Assembly (NCBI GenBank): GCA_963707915.1
Contig: OY970178.1
Coordinates: forward strand, 1,312,001 to 1,376,000
Source of the DNA: Candidatus Eiseniibacteriota bacterium
GTDB taxonomy: Bacteria; Eisenbacteria; RBG-16-71-46
Direction: 5' to 3'
DNA length: 64,000 nt
A program made the position numbers and the translations under genes. Each line of letters starts with the position of its first letter. Positions within the stretch are counted from its first letter, which is position 1. Under the pieces are notes generated by a model that worked only from the letters and a program-made list of their open reading frames with translations, searched no databases and was not told where the DNA came from. Below are positions 15,126-62,301 of the stretch, piece after piece.

Positions 15126-15173
15126 GGGACACCTCGCTTCGAGAGGCCGGCGGGCCGGCCGCTCCCCGCGCCG

Positions 15174-37794: not shown

Positions 37795-37865
37795 GCGACG
37801 GACTCTACACGACCACCGATGGGATGCCAGTCGGACCCCCGCTCGTCGTCACCGGGGCGCACGCC

Positions 37866-40555: not shown

Positions 40556-40557
40556 GG

Positions 40558-41508: not shown

Positions 41509-41510
41509 GA

Positions 41511-43480: not shown

Positions 43481-43541
43481 CTTCCCTCCGATGTCGCCGG
43501 TTCCGCTCCGTCCGTCCGGGTGCCGGATCCTGCGGGCGTCG

Positions 43542-43572
43542 ATTCTACCGGGCCGGGCTCGGCCCGGGTCAA
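43542..43572 (-). promoter_or_regulatory. Promoter of the moxR-bat operon with 19-nt dyad spacer
   Basis: TTGACC-19nt-TAGAAT; the spacer holds an 8-bp inverted repeat (43548-43567). Confidence 0.55.
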
Positions 43573-43744
43573 GGCTGCGCAAACTCGCGGCAACGCCTTG
43601 GAAAAATCCCGCGGCGGTCCGGCCTCCCGGCCGCCGCGCGTCCCCGCCCGCCCGCTCCCGCGAATCGAAACGGCCTGCCCGCCGTGGCATCCGGCGGGCA
43701 GGCCCGTGTCGCTGCCGAGCCCCGGGCGACGCCCGGTCCCGGTG

Positions 43745-45915: not shown

Positions 45916-46743
45916 TCAGGGCAGCAGGACCACGCGCCGGGACGTGACCCGGTCCCCGGCTTCGAGCGTGACCAGGTAGACGCCCGCCGACAGGCGCCCG
46001 CCGGCGTCGTCACGGCCGTCCCACGGCACGGTCCGCGAGCCGGCGGCGCACCAGCCGTCCGCCAGTCGGCGGACGGTGCGGCCCTGGACGTCGCGCACGG
46101 TGAGGCGCTGGATGCCCGCGCGGTCCGCACCCACCTCGAAGCGCAGGGCGCCCCGGCCCGGGTTGGGCACGGCGCCCAGCGCGAGAGGCGGCACCGCCCG
46201 GTCGCCGACCCCGGCCGGGGCCGCCACGCCGACGCCGACCAGGGCGCCGGTGGCGTGGACCGGTTTCACGTACATCCCGGCCCGGTAGAACTGCAATGCG
46301 ACGATCTGCACCGTGGTCACCTGCGGGGTGTCCGCGGCCCGGAAGCGGAGCCGGTACAACGGGCCCGGCCCGGGGAGATAGACGCCGTCGCACAGCAGCG
46401 CGTCCGAGATGGTGTCGGTGCTCGCGCCCCGGCCGAAGACGTGGAAGGTGCTGCCGCACGCCTCCTTCATGTACGAGCCTTCCTGGAGGGAGAACGGCGA
46501 GAGCGGTACGAAGGTCAGCGCGGCGGGGTCCCACGAGACGACGGCCCGGAACGCGTTGAAGAGGTCGCCCGCCTCGGTGCATTGCAGGACCAGTTCGAAC
46601 TCCGCCCCCGGAGCGACGGTCTGCCCGGTGGGAAGCAGCGCGGCCGTCACGCCGTCGGCGCGGAGGGCGGCCGGAGCAGCGCACAGCCCGGCCGCGGCCG
46701 CGAGCGCGACCGCGATCGCCCTTCGGAACCGTGCCAGCGCCAT
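45916..46743 (-). CDS. Secreted cohesin-like plus FlgD-Ig protein (paralog of 61248-62108)
   Basis: Signal peptide; VAPGAEFEL...VSWDPAALTF...GPGPLYRLRFRA; VPNP...DVQGRTVRRL...WDGRD...GVYLV. Confidence 0.82.
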   Translation of the reverse strand: MALARFRRAIAVALAAAAGLCAAPAALRADGVTAALLPTGQTVAPGAEFELVLQCTEAGDLFNAFRAVVSWDPAALTFVPLSPFSLQEGSYMKEACGSTFHVFGRGASTDTISDALLCDGVYLPGPGPLYRLRFRAADTPQVTTVQIVALQFYRAGMYVKPVHATGALVGVGVAAPAGVGDRAVPPLALGAVPNPGRGALRFEVGADRAGIQRLTVRDVQGRTVRRLADGWCAAGSRTVPWDGRDDAGGRLSAGVYLVTLEAGDRVTSRRVVLLP

Positions 46744-46806
46744 GGCTGCCTCCCGTCGGCCCCCGCGGGCCCGCGCGCCTCGCGCGCCGCGCCCGCGGCC
46801 GGCCCG

Positions 46807-49800
46807 CTACCTGAGATACGTCAGCGTCCGCGTGAATCCACGCTGCGCGGCCCTCAGGCGCACGTAGTAGACCCCCGCCGACATCGCGTGGCCCCGCTCA
46901 TCGCGACCGTCCCAGGTCACCCGGTATTCGCCCGGCTCGCGGGACTCCCGCACCAGGGTCCTCACCCGCCGCCCGTCCACCGAGAAGACCGCCAGCTCGA
47001 CCGGCCCGCCCTGGGCCAGGCTGAAGGCGATCGCCGTGGCCTCGCGGAACGGGTTCGGCGCCGCCGGGGCCAGCTGGGTGACCGTCGGCAGCGCCCTCGG
47101 CACGCGCAACGACGTGGCGAGGCTCACCGGTCGGTTCCGCGCATCGCGCGCGTCGACCGAGGCCAGCCGGATCTTCGGATCGCCGGCGGCGAGGGCGCGG
47201 AAGGTCACCGTGGCGGCCACGCCGTCGCCCCGGAATCCCGCACCCGGGCCGAGGACCGCGGCGTCCACCGCCCCGGGCGCGGCGGACAGCACCAGCGCGC
47301 CCAGGCTCCCGGCCAGCTCGCCCGCCCCCCAGCCCACCGGCGTCACCACGGCGGGATCCCACGCCAGCCTGGCCGCCAGGCACTGCACCGCGCCGGTGCC
47401 GCGCATCCGCAGGCCCACCTGCACGTCCCCGCCCTCCGCGACGCGGTCCACCGTCTCGAGCATCAGCTCGTCGCGGTCCGCCGCGACCGGCAGCGCGGAG
47501 GCCTGGGGCGCCGTGACGCGAGCGAAGGTCATCGCGAATACCACCAGGTCCTCGAAGTCCAGGATGTTGTCGGTGGTCGGCAGCGTGTTCGCCGAGTAGT
47601 CGGCGGTCGGTCCGACGTCCAGCGCCGTGTACCGGGAGCCCGCGACCAGCGTCGTCCCGTAGTGGGCGCCGAGCAGGGAGACGTCGGCGACGTCCACGCG
47701 GTCGTCCCCGGCGAGCAGCGAGTCCGCCGGGTCCACCACGTCGCCGAGGTGGTAGTTGAGCGTGCCCGTGGTCATGTTCGACACCGCCGAGTGCGAGCCG
47801 TACCGGTCGGTCACGACGGCGACGTAGTAGTAGAAGTCACGCAGCGGGACCAGGTCGTCGTGCGACGTGCCGGGCGACGCGACCGCGGCCGCGCGCGTCC
47901 AGCGTCCGGCCGGCGGATACGCCGTCGGCAGCGGCGGCACCGAGCCCGGGACGGGCCCGTCGTCGTACTCCGGGTAGTTGCCGAACCCGGCCCGGTAGAT
48001 CTCGACCGTGTCGCCCTCCCCCACCGCCGGCCAGGCGATGCCGATCGCCGTGGTGCTGCCCGGGGCGTTGCCGGTCTTGCGCTGTGTCGCGGTCAGCAGG
48101 GTGATCCCCGGCACCGCCGGGTTCACCGCGAAGGTCACCCGGATGGCGTGGTCCGCCCGCACGTCCGCGACCGTGTAGGGGCTCGCCGGGCCGACCGGGA
48201 CACCGTCCACCAGCAGGCTGTCGAGGTGGTACCCGGCGTCCGCGGTCGAGGTGAACGCCTGGCTCCCGCCGTACTCCACCGCCACCGCTCCGCCGGGGGA
48301 GATCGAGCCGTGGGCCCCCGCGCTCGCCGTGATGGTGAAGACGTCGATCGCGAACGTGGCGTGGAGGGTGTGGTCGGTGGTCACGTGGGTGAACGTGTAG
48401 CCCGTCGCCGGCGCCACCGGGCTGCCGTCCACGAAGAGGCTGTCGAGGTGGTACCCGGTCGCGGGCGTGATGGCGAAGCCGCGGTCCGCGCCGTAGTCCA
48501 CCGGCACCAGCCCGGCCGGGTCGATCCCGCCGTTCGGTCCGGCGCTCGCCGCGATGGTGAACACGTCGATCGCGAACGTGGCGTGGAGGGTGTGGTCGGT
48601 GGTCACGTTGGTGAACGTGTAGCTCGTCGCCGGCGCCACCGGTGCGCCGTCCACGTAGAGGCTGTCCACGTGGTAGCCGGTCCCCGGCGTGAGGGCGAAG
48701 CCCAGGCTGGAGCCGTGCGCCACGGTCACCGGGCCGCTCGGGTCGATCGCCCCGTGGGCCCCCGCGCTCGCCACGATCGAGTAGTAGTTGATGGCGAATG
48801 TCACGTGGATCGCGTGTCCGGCCTGCAGGTCGGTGAACGTGTAGCCCGGCGCCGGGGCGACCGGCACGCCGTCCACGTACAGGCTGTCCACGTGGTAGCC
48901 GGTCTCCGGCGCGAATGCGAAGGCCTGGTCCTCGCCGCGGGTGACGCCCACGGTCCCCGCCGGGCTGATGCCGCCGTGGGGACCCGCGGTCGCGGTGATC
49001 GTGAAGTCGTTGACCGCGAACGTCACGTGGATGGCGTGGCCGGCCGTCACGTTCGTGAACGTGTGACTCGTCGCCGGGGCGACCGGCACGCCGTCCACGT
49101 ACAGGCTGTCCACGTGGTAGCCCGCATCCGGCGTCAGCGTGAAGCCCTGGTCCGCGCCGTGGTCCACCGTCACCGGCCCGCTCGGGTCGATCGCACCGTG
49201 CGCCCCGGCGCTCGCCATGATCGTGTAGGTGTCGATCGCGAAGGTGGCGCGGATGGAGTGGTCCGCCGTCACGTTCGTGAACGTGTGACTCGTCGCCGGG
49301 GCGACCGGCACGTCATCCACGGTGAGGCTGTCCACGTGGTAGCCCGACGAGGGGCTGATCGCGAACCCCTGGTCCGCGCCGTAGTCCACCGCGACCCCCC
49401 CGCTCGGGTCGATCGTCCCGTGCGCGCCCGCGCTGGCCGCGATCGTGAAACGGTCGATGGCGAACGTGACGCGCACGGCGTGGTCGGACTGCACGTCGGC
49501 AAGCGAGAAGGGCAGCACCACCGGCACCGGGACGCCGTCCACGGTCAGGCTGTCCACGTGGTAACCCGGGTCCGGCGTGATCGTGTAGGGCTGGGTCGCG
49601 CCGTGCTCGACCGAGGCGCTCGGCGGGGCGATCGAACCGTGCGGACCCGCGGTGGCGGTCAGCGAGTAGAGCCCGATCGTGAAGTCGGCGTCGCTGGCGT
49701 CCGTGGCCGAGTTGCCATTCACGTCGTGCGCGGTCACGCGCACGCGGACCGTCGTGGAGAGCGTGTTCGGCACCGTCCAGAGGTGGGAGCCGGAGTTCGC

Positions 49801-52746
49801 GATGCCGGTCGCGATGGCGGCCGTGTAGCTCGCGCCGCCGTCGGTCGAGTAGGCCAGGTCCACGCTCCCCACGCCGGCGTCGTCGGTCGCGGTCCACGTG
49901 ATGCTGTGTGGCGAGCCGACGGCCCAGGACTGCCCGCCGTTCGGCGCGGTGACCGTCACCGCCGGGGCCGAGTGGTCGATGCGCACCTCGGCCGCGGTCC
50001 CGACCGCCGCCGGCAGTTTCGAGTCGTCGCAGGTGCCGAGCGACCAGCGCAGCACCGTGACGGTGTCCACCGCGCTCGCGGCCGCGCTCGACAACGCCAC
50101 GTCGAACAGCGTGGCGAGCGCCTGGTCGGAGCCGCACGGGCCGGCCACGACCGCGCCGTCCGCGCGGTACAGCCCGCCGCCGAGGTCGGTGGCCTGGAAG
50201 CTGGTGGTGCGCCCGCCGCCGGCGAGGAAGTCCCCCTCGGTGATGCTGCCCACGCCCGCGGGCAGGGCCAGGTGCGAGGAGAGCCGGAACGTCACGCTGA
50301 AGGTCCGGGCCAGGCTCGCGCCGCTCCGCGAGACCCGGACGGGCACGGTCACGGTCGGGTGGTCCGGCGAGATCGTGGTGGGCGGGGCCACCGCGTCCGC
50401 CGTGGCCGCGGGCTCGTCCACCATGAACGTCGCCCGGATGCTGTGGGCTTCGGTCACGCCCGTGAACCGGTAGGTCGTGTCCGGCGCGACCACCGTCCCG
50501 TCCACGACCAGGCTGTCGACCTGGTAGCCCGCATCCGGGGTGATGGCGAAGGCCTGGTCCGCCCCGTGAGGCACCGCCACGGACGGCGACGGGCTGATCG
50601 CGCCGTGGGCGCCCGCGCTCGAGACGACCGGGTAGGTGTTGATGGCGAAGGTGGCCCGGATCGTGTGGGGCGCGGTGACGTTCGTGAACGTGTAGGTGCT
50701 CTCCGGCGTCACCGGCGATTCGTCCACGTAGAGGCTGTCCAGGTGGTGGCCCACCGCGGGCGTCATCGTGAACACGATCGATCCGCCGTTCACCACCGAG
50801 ACCTCGCCCGCGGGATCGATGGTCCCGTTCGGGCCGGCGCTCGCCGTGATGGTCCGGCCGGTGGTCTGGCCGATGGCGAAGTCCCCGAACCCGTCGGCTC
50901 CCAGCACCTGCGTGCTCGTGGAGGCCCGCGTCCCGACCGCCGGGTACGACCAGGCGCCACCCTCGCGCCGGCCGACGATGAAGATCCCGGGGTCGGCACC
51001 CCCCTGCAGGTCGCCGCCCGTGAAGTGGAAGGTCGCGTCGTAGGGCCCGGTCACGCCGCCGCTCAGCAGCGTCCAGGCGCGCTTCACGTACCGGGCCTGG
51101 CTGATCATCGAGGAGGCGAGGTCCGGCGGCACCTCCGCCGCGACCCCGACCGTGAGGTCGCCCGCGCCCGTGCCGTCGCCGAAGGTCAGCTCCACCGGCG
51201 TGTAGTCGGTCGCGTCGCCGATCTCGAACACCGGGACCGAGGCCCCCGCGGGCACCGCGCGCTGCAGTCGGCCGACGACGTAGCCGCCGCCCGAACGCGT
51301 GAGGCTCGAACCGGCCGGCAGGATGACCTTGTTGCCGCCGGTCGTGATCCGGCCCGCGCCGAGGGCCAGCGTGCCGTTGACGGTCAGGTCGCCGGAGCCC
51401 AGCGCCATCCCGCCGCCGTCGAACGTCAGGTTCCCGGGCACGGTCCGCGGAGCGTCCGGCAGGGTCACCACGCCCTGCTCGACCACGACGTGCTGCGGGA
51501 CGCCCGCGCCGGCGGCGCCGCCCGCTCCGCTCCACTCGGGTCCCACGGCGGTGCCGCCCGGCGCGTTGTAGACCAGGTTCGAGTTCCCGCCGTAGGTCGG
51601 CGCGACGGCGAGCGAGCCGCCGGTGTCGATCCGGAGCGTGCCGTTGACCGCGGTCGTCCCGCTGTTCGTCAGCGGGGCCGCGATGGCCAGCAGGGCGCCT
51701 TCGTTCACGGTCGTCGTGCCCGGCAGGGTGAGCGCGCTCTGGACGAAGACACCGCCGGGATTGCCCACCGTGACGTTCGCGAGACCGTTGAACGTGAGCG
51801 TGCCGCCGTTGGAGACGGTCTGCGCCGAGGTCCCGCCCAGGGAAATCGCGGCCGCGGCGGTCGGGTTGAAGTCGAGAGTCGCGCCCGGGGCGACGGTGAG
51901 GTCCCCCTTGATCACGACGCTCAGGAGCTGCAGGTGCGCCGCCCCCGAGGTCATCGTGAAGTTGTCGCAGGTGAAGGGGGGCGTCCCCGTCGAGATCCGG
52001 TTGTACGCCGCGAAGTCGATCTCGAAGTCCGCGCAGGCGCGGTTGGCGAAGCTGGGGGCGGAGTTCTGCCGGAACGAGAACAGGCTCCCGCTCTGGAAAT
52101 TGACCTTCGAGTTGGGCGCGGAGAGCCCGTAGGGATTGGCGCCCGCCAGCTGGATGAACGACGAGCCCGAGGTGAACAGGATGACGTTCGCCGTCCCGGA
52201 ACTGGTGAAGACGTTGCCGGTGCAGCCGATCCCCTGGGTGAACGTCGCGCCGCTGCCGAACTGGATGGCGCTGACGCTGGCCGCGTCGAGCTTGTGGGGG
52301 CCGCCCGAGAAGGTCATCGCCCCGCCGACGGCGCCGGTCGCACCCGCGGAGAGCGCGAGGGTGAGCACGGTCGCGCCGCTCACGTTGAGCTGCGTGCCGG
52401 CCGGCACGGACAGGTCGGTTCCCGGCCCGCCGGAGATGGTGAGCACGTTGGTCGCGCCCGCCTGGAGGGTCACCGCCGAGCCGTTGGACACGAGCAACTG
52501 CTGGATCGACAGGGCCGGGACCGCCGTCACGGTGAACGTGCCGCCGCTGCCGAACTGGACGACGTCGCCTGCCGCCGGGGCCCCGCTCGGAGTCCAGTTC
52601 CCGGCCAGGGTCCACGCGCCGCCGCCGGCGTTGTTCCAGCTCTTCGTGGCCGCCCCGGCCGCGGCGCCGAACGCGACGCTGAGGGCCGCCATGAGGCCGG
52701 CGATGACCGCCAGCCGGGTTCCGAAACGACTCGCCGAGGTGTTCAC
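46807..52746 (-). CDS. Giant secreted adhesin-like protein: beta-rich N-terminus, nine InlB-B-like repeats, cohesin-like, dockerin-like, cohesin-like, FlgD
   Basis: GGAGG RBS and GTG 52746; signal peptide; WTLAGNWTPSGAP start; 74-aa repeats; shared YPEYDD/RDFYYY/GTLNYHLGDV/FEDL cassette. Confidence 0.88.
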   Translation of the reverse strand: MNTSASRFGTRLAVIAGLMAALSVAFGAAAGAATKSWNNAGGGAWTLAGNWTPSGAPAAGDVVQFGSGGTFTVTAVPALSIQQLLVSNGSAVTLQAGATNVLTISGGPGTDLSVPAGTQLNVSGATVLTLALSAGATGAVGGAMTFSGGPHKLDAASVSAIQFGSGATFTQGIGCTGNVFTSSGTANVILFTSGSSFIQLAGANPYGLSAPNSKVNFQSGSLFSFRQNSAPSFANRACADFEIDFAAYNRISTGTPPFTCDNFTMTSGAAHLQLLSVVIKGDLTVAPGATLDFNPTAAAAISLGGTSAQTVSNGGTLTFNGLANVTVGNPGGVFVQSALTLPGTTTVNEGALLAIAAPLTNSGTTAVNGTLRIDTGGSLAVAPTYGGNSNLVYNAPGGTAVGPEWSGAGGAAGAGVPQHVVVEQGVVTLPDAPRTVPGNLTFDGGGMALGSGDLTVNGTLALGAGRITTGGNKVILPAGSSLTRSGGGYVVGRLQRAVPAGASVPVFEIGDATDYTPVELTFGDGTGAGDLTVGVAAEVPPDLASSMISQARYVKRAWTLLSGGVTGPYDATFHFTGGDLQGGADPGIFIVGRREGGAWSYPAVGTRASTSTQVLGADGFGDFAIGQTTGRTITASAGPNGTIDPAGEVSVVNGGSIVFTMTPAVGHHLDSLYVDESPVTPESTYTFTNVTAPHTIRATFAINTYPVVSSAGAHGAISPSPSVAVPHGADQAFAITPDAGYQVDSLVVDGTVVAPDTTYRFTGVTEAHSIRATFMVDEPAATADAVAPPTTISPDHPTVTVPVRVSRSGASLARTFSVTFRLSSHLALPAGVGSITEGDFLAGGGRTTSFQATDLGGGLYRADGAVVAGPCGSDQALATLFDVALSSAAASAVDTVTVLRWSLGTCDDSKLPAAVGTAAEVRIDHSAPAVTVTAPNGGQSWAVGSPHSITWTATDDAGVGSVDLAYSTDGGASYTAAIATGIANSGSHLWTVPNTLSTTVRVRVTAHDVNGNSATDASDADFTIGLYSLTATAGPHGSIAPPSASVEHGATQPYTITPDPGYHVDSLTVDGVPVPVVLPFSLADVQSDHAVRVTFAIDRFTIAASAGAHGTIDPSGGVAVDYGADQGFAISPSSGYHVDSLTVDDVPVAPATSHTFTNVTADHSIRATFAIDTYTIMASAGAHGAIDPSGPVTVDHGADQGFTLTPDAGYHVDSLYVDGVPVAPATSHTFTNVTAGHAIHVTFAVNDFTITATAGPHGGISPAGTVGVTRGEDQAFAFAPETGYHVDSLYVDGVPVAPAPGYTFTDLQAGHAIHVTFAINYYSIVASAGAHGAIDPSGPVTVAHGSSLGFALTPGTGYHVDSLYVDGAPVAPATSYTFTNVTTDHTLHATFAIDVFTIAASAGPNGGIDPAGLVPVDYGADRGFAITPATGYHLDSLFVDGSPVAPATGYTFTHVTTDHTLHATFAIDVFTITASAGAHGSISPGGAVAVEYGGSQAFTSTADAGYHLDSLLVDGVPVGPASPYTVADVRADHAIRVTFAVNPAVPGITLLTATQRKTGNAPGSTTAIGIAWPAVGEGDTVEIYRAGFGNYPEYDDGPVPGSVPPLPTAYPPAGRWTRAAAVASPGTSHDDLVPLRDFYYYVAVVTDRYGSHSAVSNMTTGTLNYHLGDVVDPADSLLAGDDRVDVADVSLLGAHYGTTLVAGSRYTALDVGPTADYSANTLPTTDNILDFEDLVVFAMTFARVTAPQASALPVAADRDELMLETVDRVAEGGDVQVGLRMRGTGAVQCLAARLAWDPAVVTPVGWGAGELAGSLGALVLSAAPGAVDAAVLGPGAGFRGDGVAATVTFRALAAGDPKIRLASVDARDARNRPVSLATSLRVPRALPTVTQLAPAAPNPFREATAIAFSLAQGGPVELAVFSVDGRRVRTLVRESREPGEYRVTWDGRDERGHAMSAGVYYVRLRAAQRGFTRTLTYLR
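48121..49669 (-). repeat. Seven tandem ~222-bp coding repeats (divergent InlB B-repeat-like); two more at ~50420-50860
   Basis: Unit TIxASAGxHGxIxPxGxVxVxxGxDQxFxxTPxxGYHVDSLxVDGxPVxPxxxYTFTNVTxxHxIxxTFA. Confidence 0.85.
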
Positions 52747-52878
52747 AGAGCCTCCAGGAGACACGGCTCCCTGCCGGGACGACGCAGGAACCTGCTCGCT
52801 TCGATCGTTCACTTCTCCACCCTGGGTGCCGCCGTCGATGCGCCCCCGGAGACTCCGTCGCGCCCCGGGGGCCCGGTC

Positions 52879-55800
52879 CTATTCCACCCGCACGAGCGTC
52901 CGCGTGAAGCGGCCGTCCGGCGTGATCAGTCGTGCGTAGTACAGGCCGGGCCTGACGGTCCGGCCGCGGTCATCGGTTCCCGTCCACACGGGCCGGTACG
53001 TGCCCGCCTCCATCGTCGCGCGCGACAGCGTGCGCACCCGGCGGCCGTCCACGGCGAAGATCGCGAGTTCCACCGGCCCGGGCCGGGCCAGGCTGAACGC
53101 CAGCGTCGTCGCGCCCCGGAACGGGTTCGGCGCGGCGGCCGCCAGGGCGGTGGCCACGGGCACGGGCTCGGCCGGCCGGCCGTGGCCCAGGCTGGTCTTG
53201 CGGTTTCGCAGGTCGCGGGCGTCCACCGAGGCGATGGCCACACCCGGCGCCCCGGCGGCCAGGGCGCGGAACGTCACGGTCGCGAGCACGCCCGTCCCCG
53301 CGAGCCCGCGTTCCCGCGCGCCGATCAGCGCGGCGTCCACGACCCCGGGCCTCCCCGAGAAGACCACCCCACCCTGCGCTTCGACGAGCGCGCCGGGGCG
53401 GACCCCGAGCGGCTCCGCGATGCGGTGGTCCCAGTCGAGACGCGCGGAGAGGCCCCGCAGGTTGCCGGCCCCGGCGATGCGAAGACTGGCGACGAACACC
53501 TCCCCCGCCGCGACCTGGGTCGGTGCCAGCAGCGTCACCTCGTCGCGCTCGGCCGGCGCCGGACCGGCCTGCGGCTCGGGAGCCTGGTTGAAATTGGTGG
53601 TGAACAGCATGAGGTCCTCGAAGTCGAGCGAGTTGTCGGTGAGCGGAAGTCCTTCCTCGCTCCCGTCGCTCGTGGGCCCCACGTCGAGGCAGCCCAGCGA
53701 GTCGCCGGGCGCCAGGGCCGCGCCGTAGCGGCTGCCCAGCAGCGACAGGTCCTCGGCCCACACGCGGCCGTTCCCTTCGCACCGGGTCACGCCGTCCGAG
53801 ACGTCGCCGAGGGTGTAGCCGAGCGTTCCCGTGGTCAGGGCGGGCAGCGACACGGCGCCGCACTCGTCCTGCACGAAGACCGCGTAGTACCAGAAGTCGC
53901 GCATCCGCGGGTCGTCCTCGTAGGCGGTGCCGCCCGGCAGGCTGGCGATCTGGACCCAGCGCTCCTCGGGCGGCCACGAGGGCACGGCCGGGGCCGAGCC
54001 GCCGGCGTCGTCGTACTCGGGGTAGGCGCCGAAGCCGGTGCGGAACAACTCGATCGTCTTCCCGCTGCCGGGCGCGTCCCAGCTGACCGTGACCTTCGAC
54101 GTGCCGCCGCCGGTGCCCGGGGCCTGCTGCGTCGCGACCAGTCCGCTGACCGGGGCGGGGCGCACGTTCTCGATGACGATGGAACCCGCCGGGCCCGCGT
54201 CCGCGGCGACCGCGCGGTTGTCGCAATCGCGCAGGGCGACCGCGACCGGGGTCACCGTGCCGGTGCCGCTGACGGCGTCGCTCGCGAGGTGGAGCAGGAA
54301 CAGGGTCCCGCTCGACGCGGTCGGCCCGCAGGGCGGGCCAAGGATGACGCCGTCGACGGTGACCAGGCCGCCGCCCAGGTCACGGACCTGCAGCGAGCTC
54401 GCGGGGTTGAAGGAGCCGAAGTAGCCGCCCTCGCTGACCCGCGCGCCGCCGAGCCGCAGGTTCGCGGAGAGCTGCAGTCTCACGCTGAACCCGATCAGCG
54501 GCTCGGCCGTCGTCCGCTGGATGAGCACCGGCATCGCCACGCAGGAGTCCGTGGCGGTGAGGCAGCCCGCGGGCGGCCCGAGCGTCACGGGATTGTCGGG
54601 CGGCAGGATGGGGACCGTGACCATGCCCGGCGACGCCACGCGGCAGGGGATGCCGTCGTTGGCGCAGTCGCGCATCGTGACCGACGAGAGGGTGACGCGG
54701 CCGATGCCGCTGCTCGAATCGCTCGCCAGGCGGAGGGTGAAGAGCGTCCCGCCGGAGGCGGTCGCGCCGCAGGGCTCGCCGAGGATGGCGCCGTCGATGC
54801 TGTAGACGCCGCCGCCCCGGTCCACGACGCCCAGCTGAACGTTGGGATTGGCACCGCTCAGGTAGCCGCCCTCCTCCGCGCGCGCGCCGCACAGGCGCAG
54901 CGACGCGGACAGACGCACGGTGGCGCTGAAGCCGAGCACCGGCTCGGCCGAGGTGCGCTGGATCGTCACCGGCACGCTGACGCAACCGGCCTCGGGCGTG
55001 ATCGACCCGGAGATCGGGCCGAGGGTCACGGGGTTCGCCATCGGTGGCGGCGCGGCGTTCAGCAGCACCGTCACGGTGTTGGTCGAGAAGCAGGCCACGA
55101 CCAGGTCCTCGCCCTGGTCGTCGTTCACGTCCGCGGCCACCACTGAGCGCGCGTAGGTGCCCGCGCCGTACGCGGTCTTGGGAGCGAAGGTGCCGTCGCC
55201 GTTGCCCAGGAACACCGAGACCGAGTTCGACTGCTCGTTCGCCACGACCAGGTCGGGGTGGCTGTCCCGGTCGAGGTCCTTGACGATGACCGACTGGGGG
55301 AAGAGCCCCGCCAGGTGGTCGGTGCGCGGCGCGAAGGTCCCGTCGCCGTTGCCCAGCAGCACCGAGACCGAGTTGGTGCCGCGGTTGGCCACGGCCAGGT
55401 CGAGCCGCGCGTCGCCGTCCAGGTCCGCGATCGCCACCGAGTAGGGCTGCCCGCCGGTGGCGAAGTCGGTCTTCGCCTGCAACGTGCCGTCGCCGTTGCC
55501 CAGCAGCACCGAGACCGTGTTGGAGCTGCTGTTCGCGACCACGACGTCGGGCTTCCCGTTCCCGTCCAGGTCGCCGACCGCCACCGCGAAGGGATCCGGG
55601 CCGGTGGCGTGGTCGGTCCGCGCACGGAACGTGCCGTCGCCGTTGCCGGGCAGCACCGAGACCGTGCCCGCGCCGCGATTGACGACCACCAGGTCCGGCC
55701 AGCCGTCCCCGTTCAGGTCGCCGGTCGCCACGCACATCGGGCTCGTGCCGACCGCGAAGTCGCGCCGGGGCGCGAACGAGCCGTCGCCGAGGCCGAGCAG

Positions 55801-57210
55801 CACGGAGACCGTGGTGGCGCCCCGGTTGGCGATCGCCAGGTCGAGCCGGCCGTCCGCGTTGAAGTCGCACAGCGCCACGCTGACGGGATTCACGCCGGTG
55901 GCGAAGTCGGTCTTCGGCGCGAAGGTCGCGTCGCCGTTGCCGAGCAGGACGGAAACGGTGCTGGCGCCGTAGTTCGCCACCACCAGGTCGGGGGTCCCGT
56001 CCCGGTTCAGGTCGCCGCTCACCACCGCCCAGGGATCGGCCCCGGTGGCAAGATGCCGCTGCACGCCGAACGTCCCGTCGCCGTTGCCGTGCAACACCGC
56101 GACCGTGGCGAAGTCCCAGGTGAACCAGTCGCTCACCGCGAGGTCCGCGTCCCCGTCGCCGTCCAGGTCGCCAATGGCCAGGGCGTTGGGCTGGTTCCCG
56201 GCCCGGTAGTCGGCCCTCGCGGCGAAGGTCCCGTTGCCACGCCCGAGCAGGACCGAGCTGGTGTTCGCGGAGTAGTTCGCGGTCGCCAGGTCCAGGCTGC
56301 CGTCGTGGTCGAGGTCGGCGACCGCCACGGCCTGCGGGTTGGCGCCGACCGCCTGGCTGGTCCTTGGGCCGAAGGTCCCGTTGCCGTTGCCGAGCAGGAC
56401 CGAGACCGTGGACGGCGAGGCGTTCGCCACCGCCAGGTCGAGACGCCCGTCCCCGTTCAGGTCGCCGAGCGCCAGCGAGCGCGGCGCGGCGCCCACGCTG
56501 ACGTCGGTCTTCGGCTGGAAGGTCCCGTTGCCGTTGCCGGGCAGCATCGAGACCGTGCCCGCGCCGCTGTTGGCGACCAGCAGTTCGGGGTTCGTGTCCC
56601 CGTTCAGGTCGCCGATCGCGACCCACATCGGGGTGGCCCCGGCCGCGTACTGGGTCCGGGCCGCGAAGGTCCCGTTGCCGTTCCCGAGCAACACCGAGAC
56701 CGAGTTCGTCCCCCGGTTGGTGACCGCCACGTCCAGTCGCCCGTCGTGGTTGAGGTCGGCCAGCGCGAGGTGCTGGGGGTACGAGCCCGCGGCGTAGTCC
56801 GTCTTCGCGCGGAACGTGCCGTCCCCGTTGCCGAGCAAGACCGAGATCGTGTGGACGGAGTAGTTCGTGACGACCAGGTCCGCGCGGCCGTCGCCGTCGA
56901 GGTCGCCGATCGCGACCGTCTGGGGGTTCCGGCCGGTGGCGAAGTCGGTCCTCGCGCCGAACGACCCGCCGCCGTCACCGAGCAGAACCGAGATCGCGTC
57001 CGAGTTGTAGACGCTCACGGCCAGGTCGGGGTGGCCGTCGCCGTTCAGGTCGCCGATCGCGACGGAGGAAGGGCTGCGGCTGACGTCGAATGGCAGGAAC
57101 GGCGCGTCGAACAGCACCCCGGCACGAACGGGGAACGCAGCGAGCAGGAGCATGGCCCCGGCCACGAGCGCGGCGCTTCCATGGGAAGCCGGCCCCCGAT
57201 CCGCTCTCAT
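52879..57210 (-). CDS. Large secreted FG-GAP/VCBS-repeat protein with two cohesin-like domains and the shared dockerin-cohesin-FlgD cassette
   Basis: 14 repeats PxxVAxGDLNGDGxxDLxV.N...VSVLLGNGDGTF; duplicated NPVTLGP domain; YPEYDD cassette. Confidence 0.9.
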   Translation of the reverse strand: MRADRGPASHGSAALVAGAMLLLAAFPVRAGVLFDAPFLPFDVSRSPSSVAIGDLNGDGHPDLAVSVYNSDAISVLLGDGGGSFGARTDFATGRNPQTVAIGDLDGDGRADLVVTNYSVHTISVLLGNGDGTFRAKTDYAAGSYPQHLALADLNHDGRLDVAVTNRGTNSVSVLLGNGNGTFAARTQYAAGATPMWVAIGDLNGDTNPELLVANSGAGTVSMLPGNGNGTFQPKTDVSVGAAPRSLALGDLNGDGRLDLAVANASPSTVSVLLGNGNGTFGPRTSQAVGANPQAVAVADLDHDGSLDLATANYSANTSSVLLGRGNGTFAARADYRAGNQPNALAIGDLDGDGDADLAVSDWFTWDFATVAVLHGNGDGTFGVQRHLATGADPWAVVSGDLNRDGTPDLVVANYGASTVSVLLGNGDATFAPKTDFATGVNPVSVALCDFNADGRLDLAIANRGATTVSVLLGLGDGSFAPRRDFAVGTSPMCVATGDLNGDGWPDLVVVNRGAGTVSVLPGNGDGTFRARTDHATGPDPFAVAVGDLDGNGKPDVVVANSSSNTVSVLLGNGDGTLQAKTDFATGGQPYSVAIADLDGDARLDLAVANRGTNSVSVLLGNGDGTFAPRTDHLAGLFPQSVIVKDLDRDSHPDLVVANEQSNSVSVFLGNGDGTFAPKTAYGAGTYARSVVAADVNDDQGEDLVVACFSTNTVTVLLNAAPPPMANPVTLGPISGSITPEAGCVSVPVTIQRTSAEPVLGFSATVRLSASLRLCGARAEEGGYLSGANPNVQLGVVDRGGGVYSIDGAILGEPCGATASGGTLFTLRLASDSSSGIGRVTLSSVTMRDCANDGIPCRVASPGMVTVPILPPDNPVTLGPPAGCLTATDSCVAMPVLIQRTTAEPLIGFSVRLQLSANLRLGGARVSEGGYFGSFNPASSLQVRDLGGGLVTVDGVILGPPCGPTASSGTLFLLHLASDAVSGTGTVTPVAVALRDCDNRAVAADAGPAGSIVIENVRPAPVSGLVATQQAPGTGGGTSKVTVSWDAPGSGKTIELFRTGFGAYPEYDDAGGSAPAVPSWPPEERWVQIASLPGGTAYEDDPRMRDFWYYAVFVQDECGAVSLPALTTGTLGYTLGDVSDGVTRCEGNGRVWAEDLSLLGSRYGAALAPGDSLGCLDVGPTSDGSEEGLPLTDNSLDFEDLMLFTTNFNQAPEPQAGPAPAERDEVTLLAPTQVAAGEVFVASLRIAGAGNLRGLSARLDWDHRIAEPLGVRPGALVEAQGGVVFSGRPGVVDAALIGARERGLAGTGVLATVTFRALAAGAPGVAIASVDARDLRNRKTSLGHGRPAEPVPVATALAAAAPNPFRGATTLAFSLARPGPVELAIFAVDGRRVRTLSRATMEAGTYRPVWTGTDDRGRTVRPGLYYARLITPDGRFTRTLVRVE
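55060..57090 (-). repeat. 14 coding FG-GAP-like repeats (~49 aa)
   Basis: 14 DxxxDG-type Ca-binding loops counted in the translation. Confidence 0.85.
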
Positions 57211-57313
57211 CGATCCTCGCCCAGGTGTCGTCACGGTGAGCCAGCGGCCATCCGATCGGCCGACCCCGACCGCGCCGGGCCCGGCCGGCGGGAAGGGTTT
57301 GCCACTCCTTCAC

Positions 57314-57319
57314 ATTATA
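57314..57319 (-). promoter_or_regulatory. Consensus -10 box upstream of the FG-GAP gene
   Basis: Perfect TATAAT ~105 nt upstream of ATG 57210 in high-GC DNA; no clear -35. Confidence 0.5.
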
Positions 57320-57329
57320 CACCAGGGGG

Positions 57330-57357
57330 GGCGGGTCCCGGATTCCCGGGACCCGCC
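57330..57357. terminator. Hairpin between the 57389 and 52879 genes
   Basis: Perfect 12-bp inverted repeat GGCGGGTCCCGG-ATTC-CCGGGACCCGCC, 32 nt after the stop; no U-tract on the coding strand. Confidence 0.55.
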
Positions 57358-57388
57358 TTTCCCATGTCTCCGATTCGAGGCAGCCCGT

Positions 57389-60313
57389 CTACCGGGTCAG
57401 GACCAGGGTGCGAGTGAAGCGGCCCTCCGGCGTCGTCAGCCGCGCGTAGTACAGCCCGGGCTGCACGCCCGCGCCGTCCCAGCTCAGCCGGTAGTTGCCG
57501 GCCGCCTGCACCCCGCTCGCCAGCGTCGCCACCTTCCGCCCGTCCACCGAGTACACCGCCAGGCTCACCGCCCCGCCCTTCGCCAGCGCGTAGCTCAGCA
57601 CCGTCGACCCGCGGAACGGGTTCGGCGTCGCCGGCGCGAACTGCGTCGCCAGCGGCGCGCCCGGCACCACCGGCTTCGTTCCCGCCAGTTCCACCGGCCG
57701 GTTGCCCAGGTCACGCGCGTCCAGCTTCGCCAGCACCACCGCCGGCGCGCCGTTCGCCAGCGCCCGGAACGTCACCGTCGCCAGCACGCCCTCGCCCGCC
57801 AGCCCACGGTTCGCTCCCAGCCGCGCCACGTCCACGTTGCCCGCCCCGCTGCTCAACACCACCCCGTCCTGCTCCGTCGCCAGCGCCCCCGCCACCACCG
57901 ACACCGGCTCGGCCACCGCCGCGTCCCAGCCCAGTTGCGCCGAGATCCCCTGCAGGTCCCCCGCGCCCCGCATCCGCAGGCTCACCGCGAACGTCGTCCC
58001 GGCCGCCACCTTCGCCGGGCCCTCCAGCCACAGCTCGTCCCGCGCCACCTGCGGCGACGCCCCCGCCGCCGGCACCCCCTGCGGCGCCGACACCTGCCCG
58101 TGGTTGATCGCGAACATCATCAGGTCTTCGAAGTTGACCTTGTTGTCCGTCGTCGGCCGCGCGTTCACCGAGTAGTTCGTCGTCGGACCCACGTCGAGGC
58201 AGTTCCAGCCCGCCCCGGGCGGGACCACCGCCCCGTAGTGCGCGCCCAGGAAACTGATGTCCGCGATGTCCACCACGTTGTTCCCCGCGCAGTCCGCCAC
58301 GCTGTTGTGCACGTCTCCCAGGTGGTAGTTCAGCGTCCCGCCGGTCTGGTTCGACACCGCCGAGACGTTCCCGCAGCCGTCCTCCACGAACGCCACGTAG
58401 TACCAGAAGTCACGCGCCGTGGTCTCGTCGTCGAACACCGCCACCGGCGCGGTCAGCGTCGCCGCCAGCGTCCACGCCCCTCCCGGCGGGTACGCCGGGG
58501 TCGCCGGCACCCCGCCACCCACGTCGTCGTACTCCGGATAGTTGCCCCAGCCCGCCCGGTACAGGTGCACCTTGGCCGCGTCCGCGGGGGCGGTGAAGGT
58601 CAGCCGCACCTTCGTCGTCCCGTCCCCGTCGTTCCCTGTCCTCACCTGCGCCGCCGCCAGGTTCGCGATCGCCGCCGGTGCGGTGTTGTCGATGGTGATC
58701 GTCGCCGCCGCTCCCGGGATCCCCGCCACCGGCGCGTTGTCCACGTCGCGCACCGTCACCGAGTTCACCGTCACCGTGCCCGTGCCGGTCACCGCGCCGG
58801 CCAGGTTCAACGTGAACAGCGTCCCCGAACCGGTCGCCCCGGCGCTCCCGCCCAGGATCGCGCAGTCCACCGTGTAGACCCCGCCCCCCAGCGACACCAC
58901 CGGCCCGAACTGGGTCGGGCCCACCCCGCTCAGGTAGCCGCCCTCGACGATCCCGCTGCCGCACAGCGCCAGGCCGCCGCCCAGCGTCAGCGTCACGCTG
59001 TAGCCCCGCACCGGCGTCGTGTCCACCCGGTCGAAGTTCACCGGCACCGCCACGCACGCCAGCGCCGGCGTGATGCACGTCGCCGGCGGCTGCGGAGTGA
59101 CCGCGTCCCCCGTGAGCAGCGCCTGGACGACCTCGGCCGAGACCTCGGGGTACTCGCCGCTGCCGTCGTCCACGACGCCGCTGGCCTGGGGGAGCGCCAA
59201 CAGCCACTGCTGGCCCAGGAAGGCGGCGTGCATCGCGATCGGGTCGTCATGACGCTTCGCATACTCGCCCAGCGCCAGCACCGCGTAGGCGGTCGTCTGC
59301 GCGTCCTGCCCGTAGAAGCTGCCGCCGTACGACAGGCCCCATGAGCCGTCGGCCAACTGGCCGTTCACGAGCGTGTCCCGAATGGCGGTGGCCAGGGCGT
59401 CGTCGTCGGTCCGCTGCGACGCATCGAAGACCCGCAGCGCCCCGGCGAGGCCGGTCTGGTGGTAGTTCTGCGCGAAGTCCGACGGGTTCCAGCCCCCCGG
59501 GCCCAGGAGCCCGTTCATGTCGTCCATGAGCACCTGGGAGACCGAGTCCACTTCGGCCTCGTAGGCGGCGGCAGCGCCCGGGAAGGCCAGCGCGAGCGCC
59601 TTCGAGTCGTTCGAGAGCATATGGATGTCCCAGGGCCACATGCCGGAGAGACCCTGGCTGCGGCGGCCCAGACAGACCGTGCGCGCCCGGCCGCCGGCAC
59701 CGCCACGCACGAGGAGCTCGGTGTCGTGCCGGACCTTGATGGTGTCCTTGAGCGCGGCGTTCCCGGTCTTGCCGGCCCAGCGGATGTAGGCCGTGGCGAC
59801 GTCACCGTCCCAGATGCGGAAGTACGGAGTGCCGAGCAATCCCAGGCCGGTCTTCGAGATGCCGGCGAAGACGTCGCTCGTGCCGATGCCGAGGCGCACG
59901 TCACCGGTGAAGATGGCGGCATCGGCAAGACCGCGTCCGATCGGCCCGTAGAGGTTCTCGTACGAGGCGCCGGCCGGATGCCACGTGGCGCCCGTCGTTT
60001 CCCAGTCCCAGCCGCCGTCGTCGGCATCCGAGTCCCCGGGGTCGGCGCCATTGCCGGCGTTGTCGCTGGTGACGTCGGCCTGGAGGTCCACGAGGCGGTT
60101 GCCGACGGCGAGCGCCGCGGCGACCGGGTCGGTGAAGAAGCCGGCCGTGCTCGTCGCACCCAGCGGCGCGAGCCTGAGCGCATCCGCGGGCGCGCGCGAG
60201 GCGTCCGGAACGCCCGGGTAGGGGACGGCGCGCGGGGGGGCTGCATGCGCGAGCGTGACGAAGGCGCAGGCGAGGAGTACCAGGAGAATCGGGAAGAATC
60301 CGGTGCTTCTCAT
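57389..60313 (-). CDS. Large secreted protein: alpha/alpha-barrel-like N-terminal domain plus the shared cohesin-dockerin-cohesin-FlgD cassette
   Basis: GAAAGGA RBS; signal peptide; LVDLQ...DGGW, LVNGQLADGSW, TTAYAVLAL; YPEYDD cassette. Confidence 0.86.
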   Translation of the reverse strand: MRSTGFFPILLVLLACAFVTLAHAAPPRAVPYPGVPDASRAPADALRLAPLGATSTAGFFTDPVAAALAVGNRLVDLQADVTSDNAGNGADPGDSDADDGGWDWETTGATWHPAGASYENLYGPIGRGLADAAIFTGDVRLGIGTSDVFAGISKTGLGLLGTPYFRIWDGDVATAYIRWAGKTGNAALKDTIKVRHDTELLVRGGAGGRARTVCLGRRSQGLSGMWPWDIHMLSNDSKALALAFPGAAAAYEAEVDSVSQVLMDDMNGLLGPGGWNPSDFAQNYHQTGLAGALRVFDASQRTDDDALATAIRDTLVNGQLADGSWGLSYGGSFYGQDAQTTAYAVLALGEYAKRHDDPIAMHAAFLGQQWLLALPQASGVVDDGSGEYPEVSAEVVQALLTGDAVTPQPPATCITPALACVAVPVNFDRVDTTPVRGYSVTLTLGGGLALCGSGIVEGGYLSGVGPTQFGPVVSLGGGVYTVDCAILGGSAGATGSGTLFTLNLAGAVTGTGTVTVNSVTVRDVDNAPVAGIPGAAATITIDNTAPAAIANLAAAQVRTGNDGDGTTKVRLTFTAPADAAKVHLYRAGWGNYPEYDDVGGGVPATPAYPPGGAWTLAATLTAPVAVFDDETTARDFWYYVAFVEDGCGNVSAVSNQTGGTLNYHLGDVHNSVADCAGNNVVDIADISFLGAHYGAVVPPGAGWNCLDVGPTTNYSVNARPTTDNKVNFEDLMMFAINHGQVSAPQGVPAAGASPQVARDELWLEGPAKVAAGTTFAVSLRMRGAGDLQGISAQLGWDAAVAEPVSVVAGALATEQDGVVLSSGAGNVDVARLGANRGLAGEGVLATVTFRALANGAPAVVLAKLDARDLGNRPVELAGTKPVVPGAPLATQFAPATPNPFRGSTVLSYALAKGGAVSLAVYSVDGRKVATLASGVQAAGNYRLSWDGAGVQPGLYYARLTTPEGRFTRTLVLTR

Positions 60314-60692
60314 GGAACGTGTCCTTTCACGCGGCCACGCCGCAGGGCATGCGGCCCTGGGCATGCGGCCCCGCTCTGGAGGTGGGACGACGCTCCGCGC
60401 ATCGGGACTGCCGGTACAACTGCGATCGGGGGGCCACAGGTGAGGCCGGACCTTCGGAACGATCGCGGAGCGATTCAAGGCGAAATAGGGTCAGCGCTTC
60501 CCGGGGGGCGACCTCGGGACCACATCGGTGGCGATCCTGTGGCACATGGGGTACGGCCTCCCACAACGACGGGCACCTTCTGCGTCGGGCGTCGGGGCCA
60601 TAGCGGGGGACGGATGTGAATCCAGGGCCCTCGACCATTCGACCCGCGGGGTTCCGGAGCGATCCGGACAGGTCGAAGTCATGCGAATCCGG

Positions 60693-61229
60693 TCAACGGT
60701 AGAGCGTCTTGACCCTCCCCCAACTCGCCACGCGCGCGGGCGTGGCGGCAATGATGTGCACGATCCCGCCGGTGCAGTCCGGCAGCGTGATGGCGTTGTC
60801 CGAATCGCGGAAGTCCGCTTCGATGCACGGCACCGGGGCTTCCCCGACCGAGACCGCCTTGAAGCGGAAGGACACCAGGACACCGGGCCCCGCGGTCGAG
60901 CCGGTCAACACGGCCGCGTCGTAGAGGACCGAATCCGCGCCCGCACCCGGCGTCACGATGACGTAGTCCGTGTACGGCCTGCCCGTGCCCGTCAGCACGC
61001 CTCCCGCGTCGGCGCCGAGGAACTGCAGCTTCGCCGGATCGAATTGGAACCGGAGGTGGAACCCCTTGAGGTCCTCGAAGGCGTCGGTCACGATCCGCAG
61101 TTCGAGCTCGTCCCCGACGTAGACGCTGGTGTCGGCGGGCGACATGCCGACGGTGACCGCCCGGGCGGGCGCACCGGGGAGCACCACGAAGCAGAGCAGG
61201 ATGAGGACGACCCGCGGCAGATGCTTCAT
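60693..61229 (-). CDS. Stand-alone cohesin-like secreted protein with C-terminal SWGxxKxLYR motif
   Basis: VYVGDELEL...FQFDPAKLQFLGADAG...GPGVLVSFRFKA; ends TPARVASWGRVKTLYR. Confidence 0.82.
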   Translation of the reverse strand: MKHLPRVVLILLCFVVLPGAPARAVTVGMSPADTSVYVGDELELRIVTDAFEDLKGFHLRFQFDPAKLQFLGADAGGVLTGTGRPYTDYVIVTPGAGADSVLYDAAVLTGSTAGPGVLVSFRFKAVSVGEAPVPCIEADFRDSDNAITLPDCTGGIVHIIAATPARVASWGRVKTLYR

Positions 61230-61247
61230 TGCGGCCTTCTCTCGAGG

Positions 61248-62108
61248 CTAGGGCAACAGGACGACCTTCGCGACGGCGCTCGCACCGGGGGATCCCACCA
61301 GCACTCGGTAGACGCCGGGCGCGAGCCTGGTCCCGGCGTCGTCTCGTCCATCCCAGGCGATGCGCCGCGTGCCCGGCGCCGTCGCCCCGTCCTCGAGGTG
61401 CCGCACCGTGCGGCCCTGCACGTCACAGACGATGACCCGCTGCCAGCCGGCGGCCGCGGTCTCGACGAACACGGTCGCGGCCGCCCGGCACGGGTTCGGG
61501 GTCACCCTCAAGCGGGTCTTCCCGGGAGGGGCTCCGGAACCGGGCACTCCCACCGGGACCCCCATCGCGATCGCCGCGTCGGAGGAATGCGAGGGGTTCA
61601 CGAAGAATCCGGCGTTGTAGAACTGGATGTTCCGGATGCTCACCGAGGTCCACTGGGGCGGACCGGAGGAGCGGAAGCGAAGCTTGTAGAGCTGGCCGGG
61701 ACCCGGCAGGAAGAGGCCGTTGCACAGCAGCGAGTGCACGATCACGAGCGAGTCGGCGGCAGTCGTGAAGTTGTGGCTCGTACTCCCGCACGCCGTCTTC
61801 ATGTACGCGCCCTCCTGCAGGGAGAGCGGTGAGGTCGGGAGGAGCGTGAGCGCCGCGGGGTCGTACGCGATGGTCGCGACGTAGGCGTTGAAGAGGCTGC
61901 CGGCCTCGGTCACCTGGAGCTCGAGGGTGAACTCGCTGCCGGGACTCACGTACGCCGAGTCGGGAAGGACGGCGACGGTCACACCCGAGGCGTTCGCGAT
62001 CGCGTGCGGCAGGCATGCCAGCAGCAAGGCCGCGACCCAGCCGAGCACCGGCGGGGAGCCGCGTGGATGCACCTTCGCCCGGAAGTCGTTCGCGCGCTCC
62101 ACCGTCAT
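61248..62108 (-). CDS. Secreted cohesin-like plus FlgD-Ig protein (paralog of 45916-46743)
   Basis: VSPGSEFTL...IAYDPAALTL...LQEGAYMKTACGST...GPGQLYKLRFRS; FlgD tail. Start uncertain (62108, or GTG near 62072). Confidence 0.8.
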   Translation of the reverse strand: MTVERANDFRAKVHPRGSPPVLGWVAALLLACLPHAIANASGVTVAVLPDSAYVSPGSEFTLELQVTEAGSLFNAYVATIAYDPAALTLLPTSPLSLQEGAYMKTACGSTSHNFTTAADSLVIVHSLLCNGLFLPGPGQLYKLRFRSSGPPQWTSVSIRNIQFYNAGFFVNPSHSSDAAIAMGVPVGVPGSGAPPGKTRLRVTPNPCRAAATVFVETAAAGWQRVIVCDVQGRTVRHLEDGATAPGTRRIAWDGRDDAGTRLAPGVYRVLVGSPGASAVAKVVLLP

Positions 62109-62272
62109 CTCGAGCGGGAACGCGCTGACGTCACGTCCCCTGTTGGAGTCGAGTAGCTGGACACGCCCGGGGCCGGTCGAATCCGGACCGGGCGGCCACC
62201 AGTTCCCTCGAAGACAAGCTCGAATCCGCGGGGCGCAGGAAGCTCCACGAACCTGGGGGAGGAACGCAAACA

Positions 62273-62301
62273 ACCATACGGCCTGAGCCGTGGCCGTTCA
62301 A
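62273..62301 (-). promoter_or_regulatory. Sigma70 promoter heading the cohesin cluster
   Basis: TTGAAC-17nt-TATGGT in the gap between lon and the cluster. Confidence 0.65.

Follow-up and report, generated by a model that had tools for sequence, protein, structure and literature searches.

A divergent cohesin–dockerin cassette on cargo of type IX secretion type in Candidatus Eisenbacteria, with a predicted cap in its own chain

The closest described counterpart of the locus reported here is the C-terminus of Clostridium thermocellum CipA (3KCP, 4FL4), which, like the X60-dockerin dyads, shows the order cohesin, immunoglobulin (Ig)/fibronectin type III (Fn3)-like X module and dockerin. X modules lend stability to the dockerin next to them (PMC5590126), the Ruminococcus flavefaciens adaptor ScaH carries one cohesin and one dockerin that recognises its own cohesin (PMC5301203), a protein of this kind can serve as a spacer of variable length (PMC12484212), and free single cohesins such as ScaG have been proposed as shuttles, next to monovalent scaffoldins (PMC5590126). 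A cellulosome-like complex with a cohesin scaffold and a C-terminal surface-attachment domain is described for the uncultured diderm Candidatus Stygibacter of the Cloacimonadota (PMC8542988), and cohesin–dockerin modules outside cellulolysis include those of ANME archaea, the Archaeoglobus cohesin 2XDH and Cag_2037/Cag_2038 of Chlorobium chlorochromatii (PMC9012536; bioRxiv 10.64898/2026.03.19.712371). Here we analyse a cluster of six genes, named sA, sB, g1, g2, g3 and sC, in a 64,000-nucleotide stretch of a Candidatus Eiseniibacteriota genome (contig OY970178.1; hereafter the window), whose three giant proteins g1–g3 share a C-terminal cassette of cohesin A, X module, dockerin, cohesin B and sorting tail. 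It belongs to a phylum-wide cohesin–dockerin module on cargo of type IX secretion system (T9SS) type, which is real and apparently undescribed. Literature searches on Eisenbacteria, covering mainly journals without subscription, returned no paper.

Compared with CipA, the cassette adds a second cohesin after the dockerin, predicted to cap it, has insertions in the dockerin loops and ends in a T9SS-like tail instead of SLH/sortase anchors, with neither an enzyme-bearing partner set nor a match at the sequence level. ScaH and ScaG serve a cellulosome in a monoderm, whereas in the present case a single chain contains the self-matched cohesin twice, the unit itself bears the payload and the system spans a diderm phylum. 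Ca. Stygibacter keeps the classical split between a multi-cohesin scaffoldin and dockerin-bearing hydrolases or peptidases, unlike the present subunits, which hold both modules and in which no hydrolase was found. The ANME, Archaeoglobus and Chlorobium pairs are alike in their use outside cellulolysis, and 2XDH is the top Foldseek match of our dockerin-B model, but the accessible parts of their descriptions give no invariant five-domain cassette, built-in cap or T9SS-type export.

The cluster consists of six minus-strand open reading frames (ORFs) flanked by lon and by serA-like/serC-like genes (see the table), all with signal peptides at their N-termini, in line with an earlier note made from the sequence of the window, which called the genes secreted; its sizes of ~975, ~1443 and ~1979 amino acids for the giants agree with the ~974, 1443 and 1979 counted from plausible signal-peptide starts. 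The same note had seen a single cassette in all three giants, and this holds insofar as their C-termini are 46–50% identical across 429–577 amino acids (E down to 1e-137) and the motifs YPEYDD, RDF(W/Y)YY, FEDL, LxWD and ATVTFRAL occur in each of them, with qualifications for g3, where A (aa 804-948) lies ~620 residues ahead of X (from about 1570), and for g2, which has two A copies and FRTG in place of YRAG. Profiles built from the giants find the cassette in these three proteins only in the 3.62-Mb genome. In the numbering used here, residue 1 corresponds to window position 59113 of g1, and the modules are A (1-141), X (142-260), dockerin (261-340), a linker, B (about 360-478) and tail (486-574).

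The earlier assignment of cohesin and dockerin modules holds. A model of the g1 cassette (pLDDT 93.5, pTM 0.78, disorder only at linker residues 349-354) matched 3KCP_A, which we take to be the CohI9-X-DocII chain of CipA, at Foldseek rank 4 (TM 0.46 by target), and also 2W1N, 4FL4 and 2XDH. B is a cohesin beta-sandwich in which the long ninth strand is not formed in the model; it exceeds the PF00963 cut-off in g1, and every one of the 37 Foldseek rows listed for a model of dockerin plus B is a cohesin entry. A, without a Pfam match of its own, is homologous to B (hhalign 96%, E 1.5e-9). In the Atlas, the X-dockerin pair resembles Fn3 plus Dockerin_1, with 17/30 matches in the Dockerin_1 set and top scores of 0.90, and the cassette alignment couples the two modules at R158-N317, T231-N262 and F236-A318. 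The dockerin itself has two loop-helix repeats in which D267/D285 and D307/D330 are invariant or nearly so; Asp is kept at loop positions 1, 5 and 12, positions 3 and 9 vary, and insertions of about 7 and 12 residues depart from the canonical calcium loop of 12 residues with Asn/Asp at 3, 5 and 9 (PMC5590126). The Pfam search proposed earlier succeeded for the cohesins (PF00963 in g1 B and sB) and failed for Dockerin_1 (PF00404), which had no match in the six proteins or in 70 scanned homologues and none over cut-off genome-wide, so that the module is a divergent dockerin by anatomy and not by profile. Three dockerins were found in the genome, every one at this locus.

Of the candidate partners of the dockerin, B of the same chain has the strongest support. 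A model of dockerin, linker and B reached a pTM of 0.87 in spite of a low-confidence linker, and since we estimate roughly 0.55-0.6 for two independent domains of these sizes, the model docks the dockerin on B. In known cohesins, the dockerin is bound by the face of strands 8-3-6-5, to which strand 3 belongs. When residue couplings were computed for 228 cassettes (effective number 187), no pair of positions in different domains scored higher than M332 of the FEDL helix with G389 in strand 3 of B (rank 7 overall, z 12.8). The contact expected between a dockerin helix and the cohesin face is predicted for B, and an equivalent, weaker signal is seen for A. After de-duplication at 95% (208 rows, 20 near-identical ones dropped), a larger, non-Gly residue at B389 accompanied Val or Ala at 332 in 17/19 cases versus 6/189 otherwise; pairs independent on the tree changed in the same direction in 8.4/10 and in the opposite direction in 0 (p 0.008). 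When all 228 positions of A and B were ranked against 332, B389 came first (4e-18) and A37 second (5e-8), the third being at 0.016. In a held-out set containing some duplicates, non-Gly B389 was found in 27/30 versus 5/38. The giants themselves differ in these residues, g1 having Met/Gly/Gly and g3 Val/Cys/Thr at 332/389/37, and one homologue (P0223) has Ala332, Met389 and Leu37. R122, R467, D83, D428, F328 and E329 are 96-100% conserved in the cassette alignment. Capping of the dockerin by B in cis is, as a prediction, well supported.

Cohesin A shows the same signature in looser form. G37 of A, the equivalent of G389, is coupled to M332 (rank 110, z 5.9); among the de-duplicated rows, A37 is non-Gly in 16/19 of those with a small residue at 332 and in 39/188 of the others, tree-independent pairs are 6.7 in the same and 0.3 in the opposite direction (p 0.016), and the held-out counts are 9/17 versus 1/22. 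The joint between A and X is exactly 13 residues in 114/114 sequences, which makes it unlikely that A reaches its own dockerin across X. The dockerin-B linker varies from 23 to 44 residues across 114 homologues. Assembly between chains through A appears likely. The earlier note had named, as an outcome that would undo its proposal, a dockerin binding only its own adjacent cohesin; this is partly what we find, since B is the best-supported partner, and not wholly, because A keeps the same face and co-varies with 332 and because A, sB and sC occur on stalks without a dockerin.

The tail that had been read as FlgD is instead a T9SS type-A-like sorting domain, a link that the earlier note missed: TIGR04183 is over cut-off for g1 and sC and below it for g2 and g3, the tail ends 92 ORFs of the genome, and the flagellar genes are sited elsewhere. 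As in PorU-processed type A cargo, the giants and sC combine a signal peptide with a C-terminal sorting domain, and SprA, PorU and eight PorV-family ORFs exceed their cut-offs in the genome, with one PorV adjoining porU; they differ from such cargo in that the queries used for GldM and GldN, silent on their controls too, gave no match, that most giants are without the usual motif ahead of the tail and that processing in this phylum is a prediction. Export of the giants by a T9SS-type pathway, whose motor may be divergent, is likely. The pre-tail motif occurs in 59/68 members of the sC family (shuffled 20), 50/71 other tail proteins (shuffled 16) and 67/223 giants (shuffled 39), and B is followed by the PNP motif of the tail after 22-30 residues in most chains, compared with 36-37 for the cohesin-like domain in most sC. 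Proteins exported by the T9SS fold in the periplasm, and their tail is cut off once they are at the surface (PMC5445135). On these grounds we infer that B is a cap coupled to the tail and that sC is likelier to be covalently anchored than the giants. PorU with an adjacent PorV, SprA and two more PorU-like C25 proteins were located at G000:C1:472003-476676 and 3488116-3492663. A different ending, [ST]WGx[LIVM]KxxY[RK], stands on 27 ORFs genome-wide as an alternative C-terminal tag of small secreted proteins including sB, and genes with this tail also flank related loci.

The three small proteins, described before as one cohesin-like domain plus a tail, fit this outline and are of two kinds, as sA and sC are 53% identical and both end in the sorting domain, whereas sB has the WGxxKxxYR tail. 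The face motifs G-x-S/H, D-x-A-x-L and R-D-x-x-N are common to A, B and sB. For sA and sC the cohesin assignment is tentative: neither matches PF00963, which 13/75 homologues carry, and their BLAST similarity to B (E about 1e-9) includes the tail.

Unrelated heads precede the shared cassette. By Pfam, g2 has FG-GAP repeats and g3 has Flg_new_2 repeats following its beta-rich head. The alpha-barrel proposed for the conserved g1 head stays at the level of a lead, with Atlas resemblance to (alpha/alpha)6 barrels (nameless clusters first, then prenyltransferase/TED/GH127-type barrels below 0.9). The 70 homologues scanned (40 of 120 plus 30 of 126 representatives) have beta-helix (13), FG-GAP, NHL, PD40, laminin G, PA, MAM or Ig-repeat heads, or no family. 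The suggested catalogue of N-terminal partners bears out varied heads on one cassette, and since a genome of the same genus carries different giants at the identical lon-serA site, heads have been exchanged. In two proteins resembling g1 orthologues (P0027, P0042), the X module is repeated with a 240-residue insert. No glycoside hydrolase family was matched by Pfam among the 70, in agreement with the earlier note; its term non-CAZyme is not fully borne out, as 13 of the 70 heads have a right-handed beta-helix. A cellulosome is recognised by a multi-cohesin scaffoldin and many dockerin-bearing glycoside hydrolases, and here there are three dockerins and no such enzyme among the homologues scanned; the system works like a cohesin–dockerin assembly and is not a cellulosome.

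The module is widespread. Among 153 genomes of the phylum, 86 have the X-dockerin, with 1-9 matches each (0/30 in one family), and 76 have an sC-type gene; 76 hold both, 10 the dockerin only, 0 sC only and 67 neither, a co-occurrence that marks one system, though locus linkage and kinship inflate the counts. In the first nine genomes inspected, sC lay at the locus in 9/9 and sB also in 4/9. An X-dockerin profile collects 1207 clusters at E 0.001 and 940 at 1e-10, and an X-dockerin-B search found 466 proteins, of whose best 120 the order A-X-dockerin-B-tail is seen in 118 and the cassette alone in 6. Labels of 78 homologous loci are mostly Ca. Eisenbacteria or unlabelled bacteria and some Ca. 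Krumholzibacteriota, with rare cases of Bryobacterales (one), Fibrobacteraceae (one) and Gemmatimonadota (two). In 32 regions and 126 new representatives, every whole chain has a domain of cohesin length between dockerin and tail, whereas A may be missing, may occur two or three times or may stand at the N-terminus of a stalk. Proteins lacking the dockerin also exist, of the types A-A-tail, sC-stalk-tail and sB-stalk-tail. When near lineages are compared with far ones, identity stays at 45-56% for A, X and dockerin and falls to 24% for B. In P0296, sC stands in place of B.

Single cases illustrate the rearrangements: an sB-like cohesin at the N-terminus of P0288; sB or sC on a stalk of 460-470 residues with a tail (L033:11376-13505, L019:7407-9611); two A cohesins without a dockerin (L016:13742-19306); and the 2234-residue P0196, a multi-dockerin hub in which an FG-GAP head is followed by four divergent X-dockerins spaced by Ig/cadherin-like domains and then the tail. 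Paralogues at one locus (L011:7007-9433 vs 12780-15866; L028:2859-6761 vs 7702-11739) share identical dockerin or cassette segments behind heads that differ or occur in duplicate, which points to a recent conversion or duplication event.

The reading we prefer, in which we place about half of our confidence, is that these are secreted T9SS-type modular proteins whose dockerin is capped by its own B and swaps, after export, onto A or sB of another subunit, forming chains at the surface that join proteins with different heads. It would begin with export, for which signal peptides, T9SS-like tails and SprA/PorU/PorV-family genes are present; the FEDL helix of the dockerin would dock on B of the same chain type, as prediction and co-variation indicate; and A, with its conserved face and its co-variation at the equivalent residue, would take the same helix. 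As A sits behind X on the fixed joint, or on distant stalks, this binding would have to be between chains. The B cap would block premature assembly in the periplasm and be released by removal of the sorting domain, or of B together with it. Last and weakest is the step in which sC, having the pre-tail motif that most giants lack, would be the covalently anchored base, possibly tethering the chains. The likely job would be display of adhesin-, lectin- or propeller-type heads for attachment or for a floc or biofilm matrix, and not cellulolysis.

Several points weigh against this proposal. Without a release step, which is itself only proposed, the tethered B would out-compete A; the 39/188 exceptions leave the A signal looser, 8/17 held-out A domains on small-residue chains retain Gly, as distal A copies often do, g3 A has lost the strand-8 Arg-Asp, and R36 is absent from the g2 A copies. 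A third set gives 2/4 versus 0/25 for B389 and no informative case for A. The docking was read from pTM and not from coordinates, and it shares overlapping alignments with the couplings, so that the two make one line of evidence plus the tree test. Tails of this genome served to define the pre-tail motif by eye, PorU has low specificity (PMC5445135), the GldM and GldN queries were silent on their own controls as well, sC is without the D83/R122 Asp/Arg pair, and the gene co-occurrence is in part linkage at the same locus and kinship.

Tentative, and clearly more doubtful than the chain-forming reading, is its extension to self-polymerisation triggered by secretion, in which B would be a chaperone latch fused to the T9SS signal, sortase processing would unlatch it, and filaments linked through A, or a branched mesh, would arise in about half of the phylum's genomes, with knob-and-hole classes (Met/Gly versus Val/Ala) ordering the interchangeable heads. 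Branching needs subunits with several A domains or several dockerins, which are a minority; trigger, anchor and mesh are hypotheses.

Of the alternatives, the one that survives best, which we nevertheless consider unlikely, is that the proteins are closed monomers, with dockerin and B forming a permanent intramolecular clasp that stiffens or protects the base of an anchored adhesin, no polymer, and A as a spacer or relic. Dockerin and B share the strongest coupling as well as the predicted docking, B is always adjacent, and 24/126 new representatives, some of them fragments, are X-dockerin-B-tail without A; such a clasp does not fit with an A face as conserved as that of B and co-varying with 332, with A-X-dockerin being better conserved than B between distant lineages, or with the dockerin-less cohesin carriers. 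Less probable still are two readings that we rate alike. In the first, nothing is removed and the dockerin reaches over the linker to B of a neighbouring subunit of its own type, A serving for branch points; co-variation within a chain cannot separate cis from same-type trans, and the linker is disordered and 23-44 residues long, yet a single chain with its native linker is modelled as closing in cis, so that the tethered partner should win, and the scarcity of the pre-tail motif in giants would be left unexplained. In the second, a small anchored cohesin, either sC/sA or sB, receives each giant singly, in the way that enzymes attach to monovalent anchoring scaffoldins, and the giants are not interlinked; sC is a near-constant neighbour gene, retains the pre-tail motif, is found on long stalks and replaces B in P0296, but it does not have the D83/R122 pair, and the co-variation of A would find no explanation. 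The last, that these are ordinary Ig-like stalk domains carrying an EF-hand-like insert and forming no cohesin–dockerin interface, is very improbable and already largely refuted, because against the missing Dockerin_1 and PDB sequence matches and the many unrelated Ig arrays among the whole-model Foldseek matches stand the cohesin-only match list for dockerin-B, the Atlas dockerin set, the helix-to-strand coupling and the pTM of 0.87.

Coordinates of all features are collected in the table. The earlier claim of one promoter ahead of six genes is not supported: the proposed site is under the scan threshold, the hairpin being called there instead, and with a gap of 380 bp between sB and the g1 start a single transcript for all six genes cannot be taken as given. 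In g3 B, the position equivalent to 389 is Cys.

Table. Features of the six-gene cluster, in window positions; residue numbers follow the cassette numbering.
Feature	Position	Strand	Basis or remark
Proposed promoter TTGAAC-N17-TATGGT	62273..62301	-	8/12 match; overlaps weak hairpin 62278-62297
sA ORF	61248-62273	-	open reading frame
sA	61248..62108	-	signal peptide; start ATG 62108 or GTG 62072
sA sC-type single cohesin-like domain	61560-61991	-	sequence comparison
sA T9SS-like sorting domain	61251-61520	-	TIGR04183 not listed for sA
sB	60693..61229	-	signal peptide, cohesin, WGxxKxxYR tail
sB cohesin	60750-61160	-	PF00963 26.2 bits, over cut-off; face motif as in A and B
sB WGxxKxxYR tail	60696-60743	-	tail on 27 ORFs genome-wide
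g1 ORF	57389-60478	-	open reading frame
g1 (974 aa)	57389..60313	-	plausible signal-peptide start 60313; head, then full cassette
g1 alpha-barrel-like head	59114-60241	-	Atlas likeness
g1 cohesin A	58691..59113	-	hhalign to B 96%, structure model, conservation
g1 cohesin A face residues	G37, S39, D83, A85, L87, R122, N126		cassette numbering
g1 X module	58334..58690	-	Fn3-like sandwich, YPEYDD insertion, packed on dockerin
g1 divergent dockerin	58094..58333	-	two Asp-bounded loops with insertions; helices 283-291 and 328-337
g1 FEDL helix	328-337	-	M332 codon 58118-58120
g1 dockerin-B linker	58040..58093	-	predicted disordered
g1 cohesin B	57680..58039	-	PF00963 32.9 bits, Foldseek; G389 at 57947-57949; predicted cis cap
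g1 T9SS type-A-like sorting domain (FlgD_ig-like)	57392..57658	-	TIGR04183 31.4 bits, over cut-off
g2 ORF	52879-57234	-	open reading frame
g2 (about 1443 aa)	52879..57210	-	plausible signal-peptide start 57210
g2 FG-GAP repeats	55045-57120	-	
g2 A1	54631-55038	-	
g2 A2	54175-54594	-	
g2 X	53824-54159	-	
g2 dockerin	53584-53823	-	M type
g2 B	53185-53544	-	
g2 sorting domain	52882-53154	-	
g3 ORF	46807-52812	-	open reading frame
g3 (about 1979 aa)	46807..52746	-	plausible signal-peptide start 52746
g3 beta-rich head		-	ahead of A
g3 A	49969-50403	-	
g3 Ig and Flg_new_2 repeats		-	after A
g3 X	47761-48105	-	
g3 dockerin	47518-47760	-	V type
g3 B	47113-47475	-	
g3 sorting domain	46810-47082	-	
sC	45916..46743	-	signal peptide, cohesin-like domain, sorting domain; candidate surface anchor
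sC single cohesin-like domain	46225-46656	-	face differing from A/B
sC T9SS-like sorting domain	45919-46185	-	TIGR04183 over cut-off

Elsewhere in the window, a Bat-type cluster (MoxR AAA, DUF58, two VWA/BatA-type proteins and BatD) lies directly downstream of serC at 36022-43690, and two more proteins, in which Pfam recognises no family besides the same FlgD-like sorting tail, are encoded at 5031-6155 and 16850-17800.

Cohesin–dockerin pairs have so far been known as links between separate proteins. If the preferred, chain-forming reading is true, co-evolution of a dockerin with two cohesins from the same chain, a probable cap in cis and a probable socket in trans, would amount to a regulated interaction tied to T9SS export. 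The question of what cohesins and dockerins do outside cellulosomes becomes testable with small recombinant domains and with the natural variants g1 and g3, and the module may be a source of orthogonal or activatable protein-assembly pairs. For Ca. Eisenbacteria and their relatives, this reading would assign a role to a highly conserved and unannotated surface module, represented by 940 clusters at E 1e-10 or better.

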